Origin: an uncultured Rivularia sp.
Lineage (GTDB): Bacteria; Cyanobacteriota; Cyanobacteriia; Cyanobacteriales; Nostocaceae
Direction of reading: 5' to 3'
DNA: 64,000 bases
NCBI GenBank assembly: GCA_963665115.1
Contig: OY762007.1
Span: forward strand, 4,192,001-4,256,000
Shown: positions 24,675-34,947 of the stretch, in pieces
Layout: each line of letters begins with the position of its first letter
Position numbering within the stretch: the stretch's first letter is position 1
Made by a program: the position numbers and the translations under genes
The notes under the pieces: model-generated
What the model saw: the letters and a program-made list of their open reading frames with translations, nothing else
What the model was told of the DNA's origin: nothing
The model's database searches: none

Positions 24675-25777
<1,103 letters not shown>

Positions 25778-26030
25778 AACGGGCGATTTGCTCAGAATGT
25801 TCGTAAATAACTTATTGATAAGGCTTTGATGATATTCGCTAACAGTTTTTTTCGAGCGTTTGAGCTTATAAATAAGGGAATATTTAGGGAAAAACATTAT
25901 GCCCTTCCGCCAGGAGAGGAGTGCCCGAAGGCGGGGTGAGGTTTCTATTTCATCTACCTATACAAAGAATCGTTTACCAATACATTTGCGAATTTGTACC
26001 ACTAAACACCACAGACGGTAGCTATAGGGA

Positions 26031-27347
26031 ATGGCGAAAACCAAAGCGACGGAATTAGATTATCAAGAAATTTTTAAGCAAAAGTTAGCTGAAGCAAATT
26101 CTAATTTAAAAAGAGATAGAGTTAGAGTTACCATCAAACAAACGGGGAATTCTCTACAGTTACGGGCAACACTACCGTTGAAAGAAGGCGATCGCCAATC
26201 TACTAAAAGTAAAAAGCAGTACGATTTATCTTTGGGTATTCCAGCAAATTTAGAAGGATTAAAAACCGCCATTGAAGAAAGTTACGAGTTGGGTAAATTA
26301 ATCGCTCGTCATACTTTTGTATGGAATGAAAAGTATTTAGGAATCAAGTTTAGAGAAAAGAATCAAGAGAAGCAGAAGATAAAAACTATTGGAGAATTAT
26401 TAGATAAATTCGAGGATAATTATTATAAAAATCGTGAAAAGACTATAACTAGTCAAAATACCTTTGCTAATTATGTATCGGTGATTAAAAGGAATTTTTC
26501 ATTAACAACTTTAGCAACAAAGAATAATTTTGAATCGGTAATTAATCAAACAAAAGGAAATAAGAAAAACGAACTGATTGCGGTATCTTCCGTTTTTCTC
26601 AAAACATTTAAGCTGGAATTCACCCTCGATGTCAAGCGCGATCGCGTTACTCCTAAATTTCGAGAAATTCCCGAAGACGAGAAAATCATTCATTCTTATA
26701 AACTATTTGAGAAATTTGCCCTTAATCGTAAAAATACCAATATCTGCGATGTAACCGAAACCTGGGAAATGTGGCGCTGGGTATATGGAATGCTAGCAAC
26801 CTTTGGATTACGCCCCAGAGAGTTATTTGTAAAACCAGATATTAACTGGTGGATATCCGAGCAAAATACAGATAATACCTGGAAAGTTGATAAAAATACC
26901 AAAACCGGATACCGCGAAGTTATCCCTTTCGTTCCCGAATGGATAGAATTATTCGATTTAAAAAATCTCCAAGCTTTAAAAATATTAGACAAGAAAGTTG
27001 CAAAAATAGCATCTGTGCAAAATATTAATTGGATGCGGAGAGATATATCGAGATGGTTTAGAAAAATAGGAATTGAATTTCAACCCTACGACTTACGTCA
27101 TGCTTGCGCGATTCGTTCTCATTTACAGGGAATACCCATCAAAGCCGCAGCAGATAACTTAGGTCATACAGTTGACGAACATACGAAAACTTATCAGCGC
27201 TGGTTCGGGATGGAGAATCGTAAAAAAGCTTTTGGTGAAGTAGTTAGTCAGAAGTCGCTGATTGAATTGCAGAAAAATGAAATATTGGCGTTGCGGATGG
27301 AGAATGAAAAGTTGAGGTTGGAGGTTGAGAGGTTGAGGTTTGGATGA
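26031..27347 (+). CDS. xisC: XisC-type tyrosine recombinase; true start probably upstream (one G missing at 26027-26029)
   Basis: FGLRPRE, YDLRHACAIR and HTKTYQRWF. An upstream frame reads EFVPLNTTDGSYR, matching the TDGSY N-terminal motif of the paralogs. Confidence 0.9.
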   Translation: MAKTKATELDYQEIFKQKLAEANSNLKRDRVRVTIKQTGNSLQLRATLPLKEGDRQSTKSKKQYDLSLGIPANLEGLKTAIEESYELGKLIARHTFVWNEKYLGIKFREKNQEKQKIKTIGELLDKFEDNYYKNREKTITSQNTFANYVSVIKRNFSLTTLATKNNFESVINQTKGNKKNELIAVSSVFLKTFKLEFTLDVKRDRVTPKFREIPEDEKIIHSYKLFEKFALNRKNTNICDVTETWEMWRWVYGMLATFGLRPRELFVKPDINWWISEQNTDNTWKVDKNTKTGYREVIPFVPEWIELFDLKNLQALKILDKKVAKIASVQNINWMRRDISRWFRKIGIEFQPYDLRHACAIRSHLQGIPIKAAADNLGHTVDEHTKTYQRWFGMENRKKAFGEVVSQKSLIELQKNEILALRMENEKLRLEVERLRFG

Positions 27348-27512
27348 ATTAGTGGGTAAAGAAATTACCCACCAGATTTTCAGGGTTCTAATAGGTAATA
27401 ATGCGTTGGGTGTAGAGACGTAGCAGTGCTACGTCTCCTGACGTTTGAAAGAAGACAAACCACTTAAAATTAATGCAATCGACTAATAGTCTCAGTTAGT
27501 TTTTGGATTAAG

Positions 27513-28178
27513 CTAAACCGTTTCTGAAACTTGAGCGCTCAAAGTTTCGAGATTGATTCCGTAACGCTCAAACAAGTTACTCACAATAGTCTTATCAGTA
27601 TCAGCCAATCGGACTAAACCCCATAAAATATGTTCCGTCCCTATCGACTTTTTACTCTGAAGCCGAACAACCTGCAAAGCAAGCTCTAGAATAAACTTGC
27701 TCTGTGGATCGAGTTTCAAATTCTCGCCGGATTCAAAAGAATGTTCGTCAGTTGCAATATCTGATGTCGCGCCATTGGCTCGCAGTAATTGAGCCGAAGC
27801 TGTAGTTGGATCGGCTAATAATCCAGCTAGCAAATGTTCTGGCTTAACTTGCGAGTCCTCCAACTGTACTGCTTGATTTTGAGCAAACTTGATTGCATTA
27901 ATTGCCTTTTCTGTGAACCGCTCGAAACCAAAATCCAAACCAAAAAAATTTTTAACTCGTTCAATTAGTGTCTGCATAGAATTCTTTGCCTCATAAATAA
28001 AAACGTCTTCGATCGCGACATTAAACAAGCTGGCAATTTTAAAAGCCATTTCTAAACTGGGGTCAAACTTACCAGATTCAAATCCATTTACTGCTTGACG
28101 ACTTACTCCTAATTCTCTTGCCAGATCGGATTGCGATCGTTGGTGCAGTTGCCGAAGTTCCTTCAGTCGGTTTTTCAT
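27513..28178 (-). CDS. XRE-family HTH regulator fused to a Clp N-terminal repeat domain
   Basis: NRLKELR..SQSDLARELGVSRQ..PSLEMAFKIA, then FERFTEKA..PEHLLAGL..IGTEHILWGL. Confidence 0.88.
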   Translation of the reverse strand: MKNRLKELRQLHQRSQSDLARELGVSRQAVNGFESGKFDPSLEMAFKIASLFNVAIEDVFIYEAKNSMQTLIERVKNFFGLDFGFERFTEKAINAIKFAQNQAVQLEDSQVKPEHLLAGLLADPTTASAQLLRANGATSDIATDEHSFESGENLKLDPQSKFILELALQVVRLQSKKSIGTEHILWGLVRLADTDKTIVSNLFERYGINLETLSAQVSETV

Positions 28179-28195
28179 GGTTTTGCCCGTCCGCT

Positions 28196-28247
28196 GTCAA
28201 GTCATACTTTACAACTTTGTAAAACTAAATGTCAAGTATCACTTGAC
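28196..28247. promoter_or_regulatory. Paired palindromic operators upstream of the XRE-ClpN gene
   Basis: GTCAAGTCATACTTTAC at 28196-28212 and GTCAAGTATCACTTGAC at 28231-28247. Confidence 0.6.
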
Positions 28248-28380
28248 GTATGATTTGGATGCCGTTGCTGAAGGTGCTTTTTCAAAGGCAGTAAAATAAA
28301 AACCAGTATAATTTTTGCCCCCTTATAAAATTAAGACTTGACAATGAAAGTTGGTCATGGTTTTATTTACTCATGCAAAC

Positions 28381-28621
28381 GAATATCAACTCTAGATGTT
28401 CGTCTCAAGCGCACTATCTCTACTTTTTAGATTGATGCGTATTTAATATCTTGGTTTAGCGTTTATCCTAAATGAAAGATTTCATTTAAGGTAAATACTA
28501 GTTCAAAATATTGGCTATTCAATAGTTTAAAGCTTAGAAATAGTGCGCTTGAGACGGTTATCTATAGTTGGCAAGTATTTCCCTTGATAGCGGAGATACT
28601 TGCCAACTATGCCTGATATTC
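28381..28621 (+). ncRNA. Candidate structured RNA or leader (about 185-nt hairpin plus 19-bp hairpin)
   Basis: 17-bp perfect inverted repeat 28401-28417/28540-28556 inside a longer imperfect stem. Second stem 28564-28582/28592-28610. TTGACA at 28338. Confidence 0.55.
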
Positions 28622-28637
28622 CAATGCTATTAACGTA

Positions 28638-29123
28638 TTGGAAAAAAGGTTAAATTTGGAAATGGAATCTGAAGATATTTTATATGTTGAGCAGCGTTTA
28701 GATTATACCTTCAAAAATAAGGATTTACTCGTTCGGGCGCTAACTCGTAAAGCATTTGCACTAGAACAAATGCAACAGGGTAAAAATTGTAAAGATCAAG
28801 AAATTTACCGAATTCTTGGAGATGCTGTTTTAAAGGCAATCTTAGTTGAGATGCTGATTGAGAACGGTTTTGATAGCCGCAAGTCCATTACAAATGAGAA
28901 GATTGCTCTAGAAAAACGAGAAAATTTGGCAAAGATGTTTCAAGAGATTGGAATTGCATCATTTATTCGCTTGGGAAAAGGAGAGAAAAACCAAGAAATT
29001 TTTAAGCAATCTTCGGTTTTAGGAGAAACATTTGAAGCATTAGTTGCAGCAGTTCATGTTGATACCCAAAGCTATGAAACAACCAAAGGATTATTTATTA
29101 ATCTATTTCACAAAGCAGCATAA
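28638..29123 (+). CDS. Stand-alone RNase III catalytic domain (no dsRBD, divergent signature)
   Basis: LDYTFKNKDLLVRALTR, EIYRILGDAVL and LGETFEALVAAV. Confidence 0.85.
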   Translation: MEKRLNLEMESEDILYVEQRLDYTFKNKDLLVRALTRKAFALEQMQQGKNCKDQEIYRILGDAVLKAILVEMLIENGFDSRKSITNEKIALEKRENLAKMFQEIGIASFIRLGKGEKNQEIFKQSSVLGETFEALVAAVHVDTQSYETTKGLFINLFHKAA

Positions 29124-29369
29124 CAAGCTTGGTGCAATGGACTGACTCAGAACGTTAAGTCTTTTTTACAAGTGCGATCGCCTTCAAGGCAACGAAGGCG
29201 ATCGCATACAAGTAATTATCAGTAAAAAAATATTAATTGCGTCCTGAATCATCTGGTAATAATACGTACAATTTGGTAGAGAACATCTAATCAAATTTGT
29301 TCTTCCGTAAATTGTATTAGATCGACGTGTAGAAAATTTCTGTAAGCTGCCTGCGTAAAATAGATAATT

Positions 29370-30939
29370 ATGAAACTGTTAAAATTTTTATTTACTGTCC
29401 TCTGGGGTTTAGGCTACCTGGGGAATGCAATTTTATTTATCTCGATTGAATGGAGTTTTTTACAGCAAAGCTTTATTCAAATATTTAATCCACTTTTACA
29501 TTTACAAGTTTTTGGGATATTACTTACTGCTCACCTTTTTTGGGTATTTCTGACTATGGCAGTAGTGGGTTTCTTATGCTGTAAGTGTTATTGAAAGGCA
29601 TCAAGAGAGAACTGCCCAAAAAGCCGAATTTCATGCTAAAAAAACTGTATATCAATCACCTCAACGATTTCAAGAAACAAAACCCAGCACTTCATTACCT
29701 TCTCTAGGAAACGAGCAGACTGACTCATCTGTACCTCCAGAAACATTCTCGAAACCAGCAAGTAAAGTAGAAACTGAGTTAGTTTCTGAGCAAGTTAAAT
29801 TACTGGAATGGGCAATTCAAAGCAGTCAAAAAGTACAATTTATTTACGAAACACAACATGGTGAGAAGAGCGATCGCACCGTCACCCCGATTTCGTTTAA
29901 AACAGTTAAGCAAACTCAAAATCTATGCTTGGAAGGCTATTGTTATCTGAGAAATGCGAAAAGAAACTTCGCGATTAAGCGTATGCGGGATATCAAGATT
30001 ATTTCTGCAAGTCAAGCAAACTATGAAAAGGTGACTTCCCAAGAGGTAATAACACCACCCGAATTTGAGGTGAAAATAAGTCGTGCATCACAATCTCCGT
30101 CTCCTGAAGTTGCTCAAAAAAATAATTATCAACAGGTAACTTCTGATGAGGTGATAATACCACCTAATGTTGATGTCGAGGTGAAAGCAAGTCCTACATT
30201 ACAATCTCCGTTACCTCAAGTTTCCCAAACAAAGAATTATAATCGGGTGACTTCTGATGAGGTGATAACAACACCTAATGTTGATATCGAAGTGAAAGCA
30301 AGTCCTACATTACAGTATCCGTTACCTCAAGTTTCCCAAACAAAGAATACAAACAATCAAGTTAAGCAACGTTCTTATCTAAAATACCGTACTAATGAGC
30401 TTGAAACAATCGTTGATTCAAAATGGGATAATACAGAAGTTTTGAAGCAGATTCATTACGAGTTAGAGTTTCGTTCTCGAAAGAAAGCCCTCGCACTGCG
30501 TAAACGTATCGCAACCAGATTAATTCAATTGCAGGAAACAGAAACACAATTTAAATGGTCAAAAACAACAGCAAATCCTGGTTCGCAAAACTTATCAAAT
30601 GATGTTTTTAAATATGAGCAAGGGCTACTCAAATATTATGGATACAAAGTTGGTAGGAGTGGTTTATCACACAGAGAACGTTGGGAAATTCTCGATCGAG
30701 TCTTTTCGCAACCTTTATTAGAAATAGATAACGCTGCTTATTTAAATGAATGGGGTGAACCTAAAAGCGCTAAAAGATTGCAAAAAATTGTTGACTCTAT
30801 TGCTGCATTTACCCGCAATGCCAAAAGACGCAACAGACGTAGTTTTAGTAAAGCAATTCAAGATTGGGAAACTGATTTAGCGTATTTGAAGAGGAATTAT
30901 TACGATAATCGCTTTTCATTCGGATATCCGCGTACTTAG
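29370..30939 (+). CDS. Membrane-anchored WYL-domain protein with internal repeats (+1 frameshift at 29567-29569)
   Basis: Removing one G joins TM ORF 29370 to an open frame containing LEWAIQSSQKVQFIY..SDRTVTP..LEGYCYLRNAKRNFAIKRM. About three ~37-aa repeats (VTSDEVI..ASPTLQ). Confidence 0.75.
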
Positions 30940-31183
30940 TAAACAGCGTTCAATAATCAATTTGCACTACAATATCCAATTTCATTTGTAATTATAAAAA
31001 CTAAAATAATCAATTTTCCGTATTTATATAGAGAAAAGCTTAGCTTTTTCTTTTTTGCTAAAGAAAATTAATATACATCGCTTAAAAATTACCAACCCCA
31101 GACAAATTGGGTTATGATTTTGATTTATAAAAAAGCTTTTAATTAAAGCAATCTGCTGTATATGTTGATTATCAAGGTTTATC

Positions 31184-32005
31184 ATGAAATCTTCAGAGCT
31201 ATTAAAACGTTACGAGCAAGGTGAAAGGAACTTCTCAAAGCTTAATCTGGGCAGATTTATGCTTTATGAAGCCGATTTGAAAGGAATTAATTTTTCAGGT
31301 GCGAATCTTAGTTATGCAAACCTGGCTGGCTCAGACTTAAGCAATGCTGATTTATCAGGAGCTAATTTATGCGAGGCTAATTTGTGTGGTACCAACTTAG
31401 AAAATGCAAATTGCCAAGGTGCTAACTTCAGAAATGCGGAATTAACCTCTGAATATCATGGCATTAATACAAACTATTCCTACGCCGATTTTAGGGGAGA
31501 TGGATTAGATCAAGGCATAATCGAAAAATCAAATTTTACAGGTGCTAGTTTTATTGGTTCTTTTATATCACAGTATTCCTTTATAGATTGTGATTTCACT
31601 GCTGCTAATTTTAGTAATTCTCATTTAAGCGAAGTCAGTTTTGATAATTGTAATTTAACTAATGTAGATTTTTCGAGTGCTTCTTTAGGTTTCGGTTTTA
31701 GAAACTCGATACTAAATAACGTTTCTTTTAAAAAAGCTACTTTTGATATTTGCAACCCAAGATATTGTGATGAAATTGAAAAATGGAGCAATGTTGATTT
31801 TACCAGAACGGTTTTTTATTTTGGTCGTTATTCTAGTATTACAATTCCCAGAAGCGTTGACGCATCTCAAGTAATTGTAATCCGTGAGGGTTCAGATTTG
31901 AGTGGTTTAGATTTAAGCGAATGCAATCTGGAATATTTAGATTTGTCAGGAGTTAACTTAACGAATACAAATTTAACTAGAGCCAAATTACCGGAAGACT
32001 CCTGA
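31184..32005 (+). CDS. Pentapeptide repeat protein
   Basis: ELLKRYEQGERNF start and A(D/N)LSG repeats. Confidence 0.92.
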   Translation: MKSSELLKRYEQGERNFSKLNLGRFMLYEADLKGINFSGANLSYANLAGSDLSNADLSGANLCEANLCGTNLENANCQGANFRNAELTSEYHGINTNYSYADFRGDGLDQGIIEKSNFTGASFIGSFISQYSFIDCDFTAANFSNSHLSEVSFDNCNLTNVDFSSASLGFGFRNSILNNVSFKKATFDICNPRYCDEIEKWSNVDFTRTVFYFGRYSSITIPRSVDASQVIVIREGSDLSGLDLSECNLEYLDLSGVNLTNTNLTRAKLPEDS

Positions 32006-32122
32006 TTATTCTATGAACGTGATTTGTGGTAATACGATTCTTCCCTACGGTAGTATTTACAGTAATGTTGATTGATATATCAAAACTTGAAAAACTAGAT
32101 ATTAAAACTACCGCTAAAACCA

Positions 32123-32854
32123 ATGCCAACATTAATTCTAACTCCACGTTACAGCGAAGATTCTCAAATTCTGTGGCGGGTGGCTACTGGTTTGGGATGG
32201 GAAGTAGAAAGATTGGTAAATTGGCGATTATCCGATAAACTCATGTCAGCTTCCGAACCAGTTTTGTATCTGGAAGCTTTGATGGCTGAAGCTATTGCTC
32301 AACAACTTAAAATCCGTTTACTTAATCCATCAGATGACTGGTTAACTACTCTTCCTGAAGAATATCGAAAACGCCCTCATTATCTTACTACTCTGGGAAA
32401 AATTCGGTTAACGCCAATTACTGCTTTTATCAAACCACCGAATGATAAAAGTTTCCCGGCTCGCGTTTATTCTGCTACAGATTTACCAACTGACTACCCA
32501 GGTAATATGTCTGTATTAGTATCTGAGATTGTGGAATGGGATAAGGAATTTCGCTGTTTTATCTTAAATCGTTGCTTGAAAACTTTTTCTGTTTATCTTA
32601 GAGAAGGAAAATTGCAGTCGGAGAACAATTTTATTCATACTAGGGAAGAAGAATTTGAAGTTCGGAATTTTATTCATACTATATTATCTGATAACAGAGT
32701 AGAAATTCCCTCGGCGACAGTAATTGATGTAGGTATGATAAAAGGACGAGGTTGGGCTGTTGTTGAGCAAAATGCAGCTTGGGGAGCAGGTTTATACGGC
32801 TGCAATCCGATTCAAGTTTTGGAGGTACTTCGGCATACTGTTATCGAATTATAG
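32123..32854 (+). CDS. ATP-grasp domain protein (DUF4343-like)
   Basis: FIKPPNDKSF, EFRCFI and VIDVG..GWAVVEQNAAWGAGLYGC. Confidence 0.75.
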   Translation: MPTLILTPRYSEDSQILWRVATGLGWEVERLVNWRLSDKLMSASEPVLYLEALMAEAIAQQLKIRLLNPSDDWLTTLPEEYRKRPHYLTTLGKIRLTPITAFIKPPNDKSFPARVYSATDLPTDYPGNMSVLVSEIVEWDKEFRCFILNRCLKTFSVYLREGKLQSENNFIHTREEEFEVRNFIHTILSDNRVEIPSATVIDVGMIKGRGWAVVEQNAAWGAGLYGCNPIQVLEVLRHTVIEL

Positions 32855-33019
32855 TAGGTAGCTATCAAAACATAAATAATCTCATTTCAGTATTTATATA
32901 GAGAAAAACCCGGCTTTTTATTTCTATATAGAGAAAATAAATATACGTCACTCAGTAATTATTATTGAAATATAATTCTATAGACTTCTAACTCAAAGCC
33001 TCGTTGAGGAATATCCAAA

Positions 33020-33640
33020 ATGTCATCATTTATTGGTCATAGTTTGGCAGGATTGACTACCTATGCAGTAACTCAGCAGTTGCAAACCCATCGCCTTACT
33101 GAAAGTAGGCAATTTAATTGGATATGGCTATTTTGGCTGCTTGTAGTTGCTTCGATACCGGATATTGATTATCTAATTCGGGCACTAAGAATACAACAAG
33201 ATAATCAAACCATAAGAATTACTCACTCTTTTTTGGGGGCAATTCTGATGCCCGGTTGTACAATATTGGGGCTTTGGTTATTAGGTAAACGAGGAAAAAG
33301 TTTTAAATTTCAAAGTTTGCAGGTAATTTTAGTAGGTTTGTCTCATCTTTTGCTAGATATGCTAACTGGGGTTTCTGCGCTGCCATTGTTTTATCCATTC
33401 AGCTTGCAAGCCTTTAGGCTTCCTTTTGGAATACTACCTAGTGCTGGAAGAATTCGATTAACTAATTATTTTTTCTATCGAAACATATTTATAGAATTAG
33501 GTGTTTTGATTCCTTTATCTATAAGTTTACTGTTAAGTATTCGAGATTCAACAAAGTCGGGTAGTCGGCTATTGGTTATTGCAACTGGATTGGTGATTTC
33601 CGTTGGTTTTACAATTTGGGCGTTTTCTCTTAGTCGTTAA
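33020..33640 (+). CDS. Membrane metal-dependent hydrolase (YdjM/DUF457-like)
   Basis: GHSL, PDID, THS and SHLLLD motifs with TM segments. Confidence 0.85.
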   Translation: MSSFIGHSLAGLTTYAVTQQLQTHRLTESRQFNWIWLFWLLVVASIPDIDYLIRALRIQQDNQTIRITHSFLGAILMPGCTILGLWLLGKRGKSFKFQSLQVILVGLSHLLLDMLTGVSALPLFYPFSLQAFRLPFGILPSAGRIRLTNYFFYRNIFIELGVLIPLSISLLLSIRDSTKSGSRLLVIATGLVISVGFTIWAFSLSR

Positions 33641-33706
33641 AAGTTAGAAAAAATATGAGTGTTCGGTGAATTAACTCATCAAACCTGCTTATAAGTTGTA
33701 ATTCTC

Positions 33707-34147
33707 TTAATTAAGACTAAAACCTTTTGGTTCCGATAACCGAGCCATTTCAGAAAAACGCGAATACTTCACCATACCGTTATTAGAAGAATCTGCCGAC
33801 ACTGCAAGTAATCCAATATTTATATCCTCAAAATAAATTACCCCACCAATACGTCCGTCAACTTGAAAAGGTCCGTGAAAGAATTTGTATTTTGCAATTT
33901 TAATTAATAAAGAGTTCGTAATCTTTATTTTATTACCAAACATTTCCTGACAGGTTTTGCGGACAACAGTATCTAGATATTTGTTTTTAGCAGGATTTCC
34001 CAAATCTGTGAATTCCGGATGATCTGCAAAATGATCCATATAAAAGTCCCAGATTTTAGAAAGGTCTTTTTCTGAAGTTAGTATTTGCTTTAATTCCTCT
34101 AATCGTTCGATTTTCATGGTGGATAGGATGCGGCGAGCAGATGGCAC
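33707..34147 (-). CDS. Hypothetical protein
   Basis: 146-aa ORF; start may be ATG at 34117. Confidence 0.6.
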   Translation of the reverse strand: MPSARRILSTMKIERLEELKQILTSEKDLSKIWDFYMDHFADHPEFTDLGNPAKNKYLDTVVRKTCQEMFGNKIKITNSLLIKIAKYKFFHGPFQVDGRIGGVIYFEDINIGLLAVSADSSNNGMVKYSRFSEMARLSEPKGFSLN

Positions 34148-34257
34148 TATTAAAAATTTACCATAGTCATGTTATAGGGAAAATTTAGGTAACGATTTAT
34201 AAATTCAAATGACTGTTAATATCAAGTTCGTATTGAATCGCTTATGAATAAAAATAT

Positions 34258-34313
34258 GTTCGTAGTAGCGCTTTAGCGCATCTTATCGGATGCGCTAAAG
34301 CGCTACTACGAAC
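34258..34313. repeat. REP-like palindrome
   Basis: gttcgtagtagcgctttagcgcatc / gatgcgctaaagcgctactacgaac perfect arms. Confidence 0.85.
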
Positions 34314-34434
34314 CATTAATTATAAATCTTCTGATGATAAGGAATTACGGCGATCGCCTAATTTAAGGAAAACCCAGGGAATCATCATTGCTTTATGCTC
34401 AAACCCTTCATATACAAACAATTCAGCCAACTAT

Positions 34435-34947
34435 CACCATATAACTGCTATGGGGCCATTGTCCGCCGAATAAAGCATATATCTCTACAGGTTTGCTAGA
34501 AATTGTGATTCCAATTTCATAAGACTTACCTGTAAACGGTGCAAAACGACGACAAGCTTCTTGATAGAAATGACTGTGCTGATACTTTTTATTAGTTAAG
34601 TCAATCGCAAACAGTCCATAGAAATAGCGAGGAATACTTTGTATTGTTTCGACAATCTGACCGATGTTTCTCGCCAAAATAGCATTGCGCGGAACTTCAG
34701 TTTTCCAAGCAGTATCTAAAGCCCAGGCTCCACTAGTTAAATGCGAAGCACCGCAGATACCGCAGACGCGAGGTGTCACAATTAATCCGGCTTGCGGATC
34801 TTTACCGCGCAAAATTACTTCAAAGCCGCGAAATAATTCTGCGTGCGTCCAAGCATTAACGACTTGTCCATCATCGATATCTACCCTTACATCCAAATCG
34901 CCCTCAACTCTACCGAGCGGCGAAATGTCTAATGTTTGAATTCCCAT
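34435..34947 (-). CDS. hupL: Uptake hydrogenase large subunit, 5' segment
   Basis: ISPLGRVEGDL, RGFE and PRVCGICG (L1 motif); ends GGQWPHSSYMV. Confidence 0.96.

Follow-up and report, generated by a model that had tools for sequence, protein, structure and literature searches.

A conserved leader RNA before cyanobacterial nuclease and RNase III genes, probably an RNase III-cut off-switch

Many cyanobacteria carry a real and apparently undescribed family of conserved leader RNAs. The leaders precede operons that encode a nuclease and an RNase III, and they probably act as RNA off-switches that are cut by RNase III. A family leader of ca. 290–490 nt comprises a promoter, an outer stem (P1), a hairpin of 60–130 bp (P2) with a conserved base of the GUCUCA/UGAGAC type, and a stem over the ribosome-binding site (P4). 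The window, i.e. the whole 64,000-nt stretch of an uncultured Rivularia sp. that we analysed, holds one such leader (Table 1). The window lacks both the HNH gene and the gene for a full RNase III, and the leader is joined to a gene for a short RNase III-like protein. Full-text searches of the open literature turned up no description of the leader or of an NYN/HNH–RNase III operon.

The leader and its setting in the Rivularia window

An initial annotation of the window had pointed out a hairpin of some 185 nt with a perfect 17-bp pairing and an apical pairing, a second stem of 19 bp, a possible outer stem and a TTGACA box at 28338, and every one of these elements was found in place. In an inverted-repeat search of the window, the arms of the main hairpin (28387–28477 and 28480–28570) are 91 nt each and 73% complementary, with the 17-mers at 28401 and 28540 and the apical strands TAAATGAAA at 28469 and TTTCATTTA at 28480. 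The 19-nt arms of the second stem (28564–28582 and 28592–28610) are 95% complementary, and the outer stem consists of GAATATCA at 28381 and TGATATTC at 28614. The base of P2, GTCTCA (28402–28407) facing TGAGAC (28550–28555), has a core that is (nearly) invariant in alignments A3 and A4. When the region 28338–28700 was folded, as had been recommended, it reached −132 kcal/mol with a z-score of −11.85, and none of 100 shuffles was equally stable. The sense strand folds more stably than the antisense strand (−123.6 versus −102.6), the z-scores being alike (−11.3 versus −11.5). The hairpin is single-copy in its own genome, and in a genome-wide scan (8.7 Mb) it tops the 60 long inverted repeats that score at least 35. 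With its perfect −35 box and poor −10 box, the promoter-like site fails a strict sigma-70 scan.

Table 1. Coordinates of the leader, its parts and neighbouring features in the window.
Feature	Position	Strand	Description or basis
hupL excision element carrying the module	25758..34454	.	20-bp direct repeats 25758–25777 / 34435–34454, 8,677 bp apart
Tyrosine recombinase	26031..27347	+	Phage_integrase match
Promoter-like site	28338..28367	+	perfect −35 TTGACA, weak −10 (TTTTAT or TTTATT)
Structured 5′ leader RNA	28373..28661	+	start placed from promoter spacing; folding, family comparison
P1 5′ strand (GCA...GAATATCA)	28375..28388	+	partner 28614–28627
P2 long hairpin, predicted RNase III substrate	28387..28570	+	inverted repeat, covariation
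P3, second hairpin	28564..28610	+	sequence variable across the family
Switch region	28611..28650	+	P1 3′ strand 28614–28627 overlaps P4 28619–28643
P4 extension	over AAGG Shine-Dalgarno-like site 28646–28649	+	folding
Short RNase III-like protein, 153 aa	28662..29123 (ATG start)	+	RNase III domain, no dsRBD
Membrane-anchored WYL-domain gene, context	29370..30939	+	frameshifted near 29570–29594

A search of Rfam, which had likewise been proposed, returned no gathering-level match to the leader in the window, and in 11 loci of the family it yielded only sub-threshold matches to the hairpin plus two unrelated c-di-AMP riboswitches. A c-di-AMP riboswitch lies downstream of the RNase III gene at L195:2849–3064 and at L200:2893–3094. 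For a related strain (run X4), 30 of the 37 differences to positions 28200–29300 of the window are listed; among them, 15 substitutions fall into 28200–28362, many follow after 29040 and none lies in 28363–29039, which suggests either a recent exchange of leader and gene or strong constraint.

The halves of hupL lie outside the direct repeats and the tyrosine recombinase, which we take to be XisC-like, lies inside, so that the region qualifies as a hupL excision element. In three relatives examined the same element carries the cassette, and the cargo of the element varies between relatives. The WYL-domain gene has internal repeats of ~111 nt and is intact in genome G420, where it encodes 479 aa. 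On the other side of the leader (27513–28250), a divergent gene with HTH_3 and Clp_N domains has a sigma-70-like promoter at 28235 on the minus strand, which overlaps a palindrome (28231–28247), a possible operator. The Rivularia genome also encodes an RNase III paralogue of its own (C1:791331) that is 60% identical to the cassette enzyme. The locus G000:C1:8197750–8198880 encodes a housekeeping-type RNase III and has what looks like an RNase P RNA upstream.

A leader family tied to RNase III genes

To score the presence of the leader we used inverted-repeat strength rather than a covariance model, because the length of P2 varies too much; this measure misses the weak copies L290 and L313 and scores an unrelated repeat, L327. 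For calibration, 150 random windows of the own genome gave hairpin scores that peak at 31.4. In a leader-first search 41 of 201 genomes matched, with one leader locus per genome, and among the best 30 of these 41 loci the leader is invariably followed by a nuclease gene and then by an RNase III gene (30/30; 26 NYN and four HNH nucleases). Starting from HNH genes (68 distinct loci: 50 of 63 places, 16 new places of a later search and two from the genus search), we found a hairpin scoring at least 35 in 30 of the 37 loci that have an RNase III gene downstream, versus one of the 31 loci that do not. Most of the latter are more distant (47–62% identity) and may represent another subfamily. Starting from RNase III genes (90 of about 150 places), the hairpin was found in 33 of 37 loci with NYN upstream, in five of six with HNH and in two of 37 with neither. 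Of these two, one turned out on inspection to combine a leader with a truncated HNH gene, the other being an unrelated repeat, and among the misses two NYN loci have weak leaders and three hold gene remnants only. A sample drawn from across the order had 16 loci that score at least 33 among its 29, seven of which repeat earlier loci.

Several loci depart from the common order. At L367 the leader sits directly on the RNase III gene with no nuclease gene between them, which is why RNase III-family genes, and not the nuclease, appear as the near-constant partner of the leader. The full RNase III behind the leader is a paralogue that 148 of 151 Nostocaceae genomes contain. At L250 leader and HNH lack an adjacent RNase III gene. 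Seven of the 37 loci with HNH and RNase III are without the full hairpin; at L199, L203, L205, L209 and L214 only the 3′ part of the leader remains, and at L209 a transposase-like gene lies just upstream of the partial leader. The same RNase III is also found fused to Swt1-HEPN (L275, L247 and others); where such a fusion stands alone the leader is missing (none of ten has it), but at L247, L248 and L254 the Swt1-HEPN-RNase III gene comes after leader and HNH.

It is important to note that the loci are kin, so that these linkage counts overstate independence; also, as leader and nuclease are neighbours, that alone can account for their being lost together. In a tree of the RNase III sequences, the state of having leader and NYN is scattered (27 changes versus a shuffled mean of 28.2), with at least eight changes forced by well-supported branches; HNH needs five changes. 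Although the tree was made by a quick method, is unrooted and leaves 43 of 89 inner branches open, the scatter argues for repeated loss or exchange rather than one clade, but shows no direction.

The nucleases look intact. Four acidic residues of the NYN domain are kept in 33, 32, 32 and 31 of 33 proteins, six of which are shorter than 200 aa, and the motifs of the HNH proteins (80 aa) are intact in most of 30. PADLOC gave only generic PtuB-like matches for HNH, with no specific system, and no match for the short or the full RNase III. A plasmid search returned no short RNase III and three HNH matches, two of which coincide in record coordinates with loci that have neither leader nor RNase III.

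Several lines of evidence indicate that the leader behaves like sense-strand RNA. The initial annotation had asked for covariation upstream of homologous RNase III genes, and this was found: in 16 alignable leaders 96.8% of 725 cells of P2 are paired, and 20 of 46 pairs have changed on both sides, a figure that none of 500 shuffles and no slide came near, with the caveat that the structure counted came from the same alignment and that the sequences are kin. The noted G-U-compatible mismatches on the plus strand likewise turned out to be a family trait, as G-U exceeds A-C along the best diagonal (358 versus 158 in sum, and in 33 of 34 loci). A TTGAC[A/G/T] box (TTAACA once) precedes the conserved hairpin core by 57–96 nt in 34 of 34 loci, within a search restricted to 50–125 nt before the core; from the box to the conserved 5′ end of the leader the distance is about 35 nt. 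From lineage to lineage P2 varies in its interior but keeps its base, and a GAUGCUG-like segment before the start codon persists as well.

In view of these data it is highly improbable that the inverted repeat acts as DNA, be it as a MITE, a cruciform or a recombination site. DNA-level conversion can keep long inverted repeats symmetric, and the cassette is mobile, but the repeat occurs once in its own genome and at one locus per genome among the leader-first matches, it is biased towards G-U on the sense strand, and it keeps a fixed position between promoter and start codon. A multi-copy MITE unlinked to RNase III genes, which the annotation had considered, would be dispersed; what we found instead is a single copy in a fixed gene context and tied to RNase III genes.

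Alternatively, the hairpin could be processed into a product that acts in trans. Such a product might be an antitoxin RNA with affinity for the nuclease, or it might consist of Dicer-like small RNAs which serve the nuclease as guides or silence a target. We regard this as unlikely. A co-transcribed RNA upstream of a nuclease gene is the layout that type III toxin-antitoxin systems have in the pertinent passages of PMC8167048, and P2, with its lineage-variable interior and conserved base, greatly exceeds the length that one cleavage site would require. On the other hand, near-identical leaders (94%) precede unrelated nucleases at L384 (NYN) and L389 (HNH), which makes a binding antitoxin hard to uphold. 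Moreover, at L161 the interior of P2 is down to about 40 bp, the window leader has no direct-repeat array (28338–28660), and its arms have no target in its own genome or, with this one leader as query, in 50,697 phage records. Like the type III systems ToxIN and AbiQ, as portrayed in part of PMC8167048, the cyanobacterial module places a non-coding RNA 5′ of the nuclease gene, presumably on a single transcript; it differs in having no short repeats, an NYN or HNH nuclease, and an RNase III gene next in line. A type III system proper was rejected, since there is no direct-repeat array and the Pfam matches are NYN, HNH or RNase III and not ToxN, CptN or TenpN. Among the three roles initially offered for the RNA, an autoregulatory substrate fits best, with RNA antitoxin and processed small RNA as its rivals.

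The short RNase III-like protein and the origin of its arrangement

The protein encoded behind the leader in the window is an RNase III domain without a dsRBD that carries an arginine (R50) in place of the signature glutamate, just as the initial annotation had read it. By motif, R50 replaces E41 of the E. coli enzyme and E122 replaces D114, whereas D54 and E125 correspond to D45 and E117; all four residues are invariant in 48 of 48 aligned homologues, picked from among the 120 matches listed. In E. coli RNase III, E41A and D114A are weak mutants and D45A and E117 mutants are low in activity or dead, as summarised in a table of PMC8708148. The AlphaFold model (pLDDT 96) matches the Thermotoga maritima RNase III with a TM score of 0.89. 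With 76.6 bits against TIGR02191 (cut-off 166.25) and no dsrm domain, the protein does not qualify as a canonical RNase III, and a search for longer forms found one protein only, also without a dsRBD. It shares with Mini-III an RNase III fold without dsRBD, and with both Mini-III and canonical RNase III the equivalents of D45 and E117, but unlike either it has invariant motifs of its own, TRK and DQExxR. Identity with Mini-III was rejected, as the best sequence and structure matches are nuclease domains of canonical RNase III and NCBIfam gave no Mini-III model.

Many cyanobacterial homologues (P0003–P0070; L175:2730–2877) have a Cys-rich tail of ~50 aa with four cysteines, a possible metal site, which is absent from the window copy; in G420 it is the full RNase III that carries such a tail as a fusion. 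By source names the family reaches archaea and candidate phyla (Methanoperedenaceae, Lokiarchaeota, WOR-3; P0077–P0118). Profile scans of metagenome and viral contigs gave only RNase III-like genes of 25–39% identity, which were left out of the analysis, and no member of the short family. These short RNase III-like proteins with their invariant active-site arginine form an uncharacterised family.

The short gene is patchy, with three occurrences in 401 cyanobacterial genomes. It occurs in nine of 27 genomes of the genus Rivularia and in two of 400 other cyanobacterial genomes. In six of the nine Rivularia loci the leader lies directly upstream, and in the remaining three the short gene follows a full or truncated RNase III. 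The predicted folds upstream of the two homologues outside the genus contain no long hairpin. As such distant relatives of the short gene do without the leader, the pair of leader and short gene is a derived state in Rivularia. When the genus was searched at the DNA level, the leader was also found ahead of a small HNH gene that is followed by a full RNase III gene (G405, G415, G420 and a second copy in G426), and in these four genomes the cassette RNase III is a second copy beside the chromosomal paralogue. In G405 the order is leader, HNH, RNase III, short RNase III. Since all four parts stand in a row there, the window layout is, on sequence grounds, most simply explained as a deletion derivative. 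The two-part module of RNA and RNase III that the annotation had proposed therefore holds as regards the link to RNase III, but not as regards specificity to the short RNase III; a strict pair of leader and short gene was rejected as the general form, the usual module being leader, NYN or HNH nuclease, and full RNase III with dsRBD. Leader fragments without an adjacent nuclease or RNase III gene were seen at L176, L188 (G412) and L178 (G416), and L176 reaches the contig edge shortly after P2.

The window copy might then be a relic, silent or unregulated since HNH and RNase III were deleted from the mobile cassette, with the family being functional elsewhere. In line with this, its −10 box is weak, the predicted switch has no effect at its ATG (see below), the Cys-rich tail is missing, the WYL gene downstream is frameshifted, and distant short RNase III genes have no leader. 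However, the same fusion has been kept in six genomes of the genus with both arms of P2 paired and P4 re-formed, and some of the other five have a good −10 box (TATATT), so we rate a relic as quite improbable.

A predicted switch and its relation to known systems

In the window fold, the 5′ strand pairs in P1 with a probability of 0.86–1.0 as long as the RNA ends at 28630, and this falls to 0 once P4 can form; in longer RNAs P4 is favoured over P1 by 4–5 kcal/mol. Across the family, the GAUGCUG-like segment has two alternative partners, the 5′ end of the leader (P1) or the ribosome-binding region (P4). The alternative folds that had been suspected from the sequence are thus supported by the models, which predict two exclusive states: P1, which forms first and leaves the site open, and P4, which is more stable and closes it. 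In alignment A3, however, RNAalifold pairs the 5′ strand locally rather than as P1.

We infer that the leader is transcribed, that RNase III cleaves it, and that both genes thereby come under negative feedback. Once RNase III had cut through the long P2 stem, the freed 5′ strand would be lost, P4 would form and cover the first gene's ribosome-binding site, and decay of the message would follow, as for E. coli rnc and pnp. Consequently, the first gene would be made only when RNase III activity is low. Precedent comes from E. coli RNase III, whose targets, according to part of PMC8708148, include the 5′ UTR of its own message as well as the leader of pnp. In the window the cutter would be the paralogue at C1:791331 or the short protein itself.

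When we compared native and shuffled 5′ strands in 32 of 34 loci (two were skipped as their core is unpaired in the predicted fold), the start region was easier to open with the native strand in 24 and harder in two; among the NYN loci (20 of 33 parsed) it was easier in 17 and harder in none. P4 is re-formed with different sequence before HNH, NYN and short RNase III genes. Even so, the "open" states are often costly, with means of 5.6 and 6.8 kcal/mol. In the window itself the 5′ strand leaves the cost of opening the ATG region the same (6.3 versus 6.1 kcal/mol), because extra bases separate P4 from the ATG.

These energies also bear on the sign of the control. The leader could be a cis-regulator in which cleavage activates, or in which the first-slot protein itself binds or cuts the hairpin. 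For the window, the 3′ fragment is indeed predicted to be easier to open (4.1 kcal/mol) than the intact leader, RNase III maturation can be positive (PMC8708148, in part), and the first gene usually encodes an intact-looking nuclease with its NYN acidic residues kept. Yet opening costs more for the 3′ fragment in 24 of 32 loci and in 16 of 20 NYN loci, and the first-slot protein changes (NYN, HNH, short RNase III or none) while the leader stays. A different sign or actor is hence an improbable reading, and we keep to the off-switch cut by RNase III.

A further step would be that the off-switch gates a toxin: as long as there is active free RNase III, and no longer, the hairpin would prevent a toxic nuclease from being translated. 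If a phage inhibited RNase III or flooded the cell with double-stranded RNA, the nuclease would be released, and the swappable killer would be an NYN RNase, an HNH nuclease or, in the window, the short RNase III-like protein. We put this forward tentatively, as a possibility that is rather doubtful, next to ordinary feedback on an operon for RNA decay. The toxin gate is favoured by the occurrence of unrelated nucleases in one and the same slot, by the carriage of the cassette in excision elements and by the coupling of leader and nuclease. It is disfavoured because this RNase III is a core gene and, if the paralogue is Alr0280 of Anabaena PCC 7120 as we infer, a strain lacking it is viable (alr0280 deletion; passages in PMC11288750 and PMC13283749).

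The closest parallel is rncO, the autoregulatory leader of the E. coli rnc-era operon, which has an Rfam entry. As with rncO, the operon encodes an RNase III and has a stem-loop in its 5′ UTR; by analogy with rncO and the pnp leader, cleavage by the encoded RNase III would be expected to lower expression here too. Unlike rncO, the cyanobacterial leader has no Rfam match, a stem of 60–130 bp and a predicted P1/P4 switch over the ribosome-binding site; moreover, its first gene is a swappable nuclease instead of RNase III, and it is carried on mobile cassettes.

GhoST is an example of a type V toxin-antitoxin system. In type V systems an antitoxin RNase cleaves the toxin mRNA (a passage of PMC8167048), and RNase III silences prophage toxins of B. 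subtilis (passages of PMC10989914 and PMC8167048). By analogy, the RNase would here hold a neighbouring putative toxin off through mRNA cleavage. The cyanobacterial module differs from these systems in that the cutter is RNase III, the hairpin is built in cis, and there is no antisense RNA; its RNase III, unlike a type V antitoxin, is usually a core gene. An RNase gene does lie beside the putative toxin gene in 30 of 30 leader-first loci, with L250 as an exception among the HNH loci, and the window has no nuclease gene.

A second cyanobacterial RNase III is already on record as Alr0280 in Anabaena PCC 7120 and A2542 in Synechococcus PCC 7002 (parts of PMC10989914 and PMC5829567), and HEPN-RNase III fusions of cyanobacteria have been published (PMC3710099, in part). 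The leader-linked RNase III is the near-universal Nostocaceae paralogue, which is at times fused to Swt1-HEPN. The relevant passages of PMC10989914, PMC5829567 and PMC3710099 mention no leader, NYN or HNH partner.

The leader adds a widespread cyanobacterial RNA family without an Rfam entry, and it provides the little-understood second RNase III of filamentous cyanobacteria with a candidate natural substrate and a genetic partner. The regulation of this second RNase III and the role of bacterial NYN nucleases thereby become testable in laboratory strains of Nostoc. If the first gene proves toxic, the module would be an RNA-based sensor of RNase III activity. Should the leader indeed gate a toxin, it would represent a bacterial sensor of double-stranded RNA or of RNase III activity and a new toxin-antitoxin layout.
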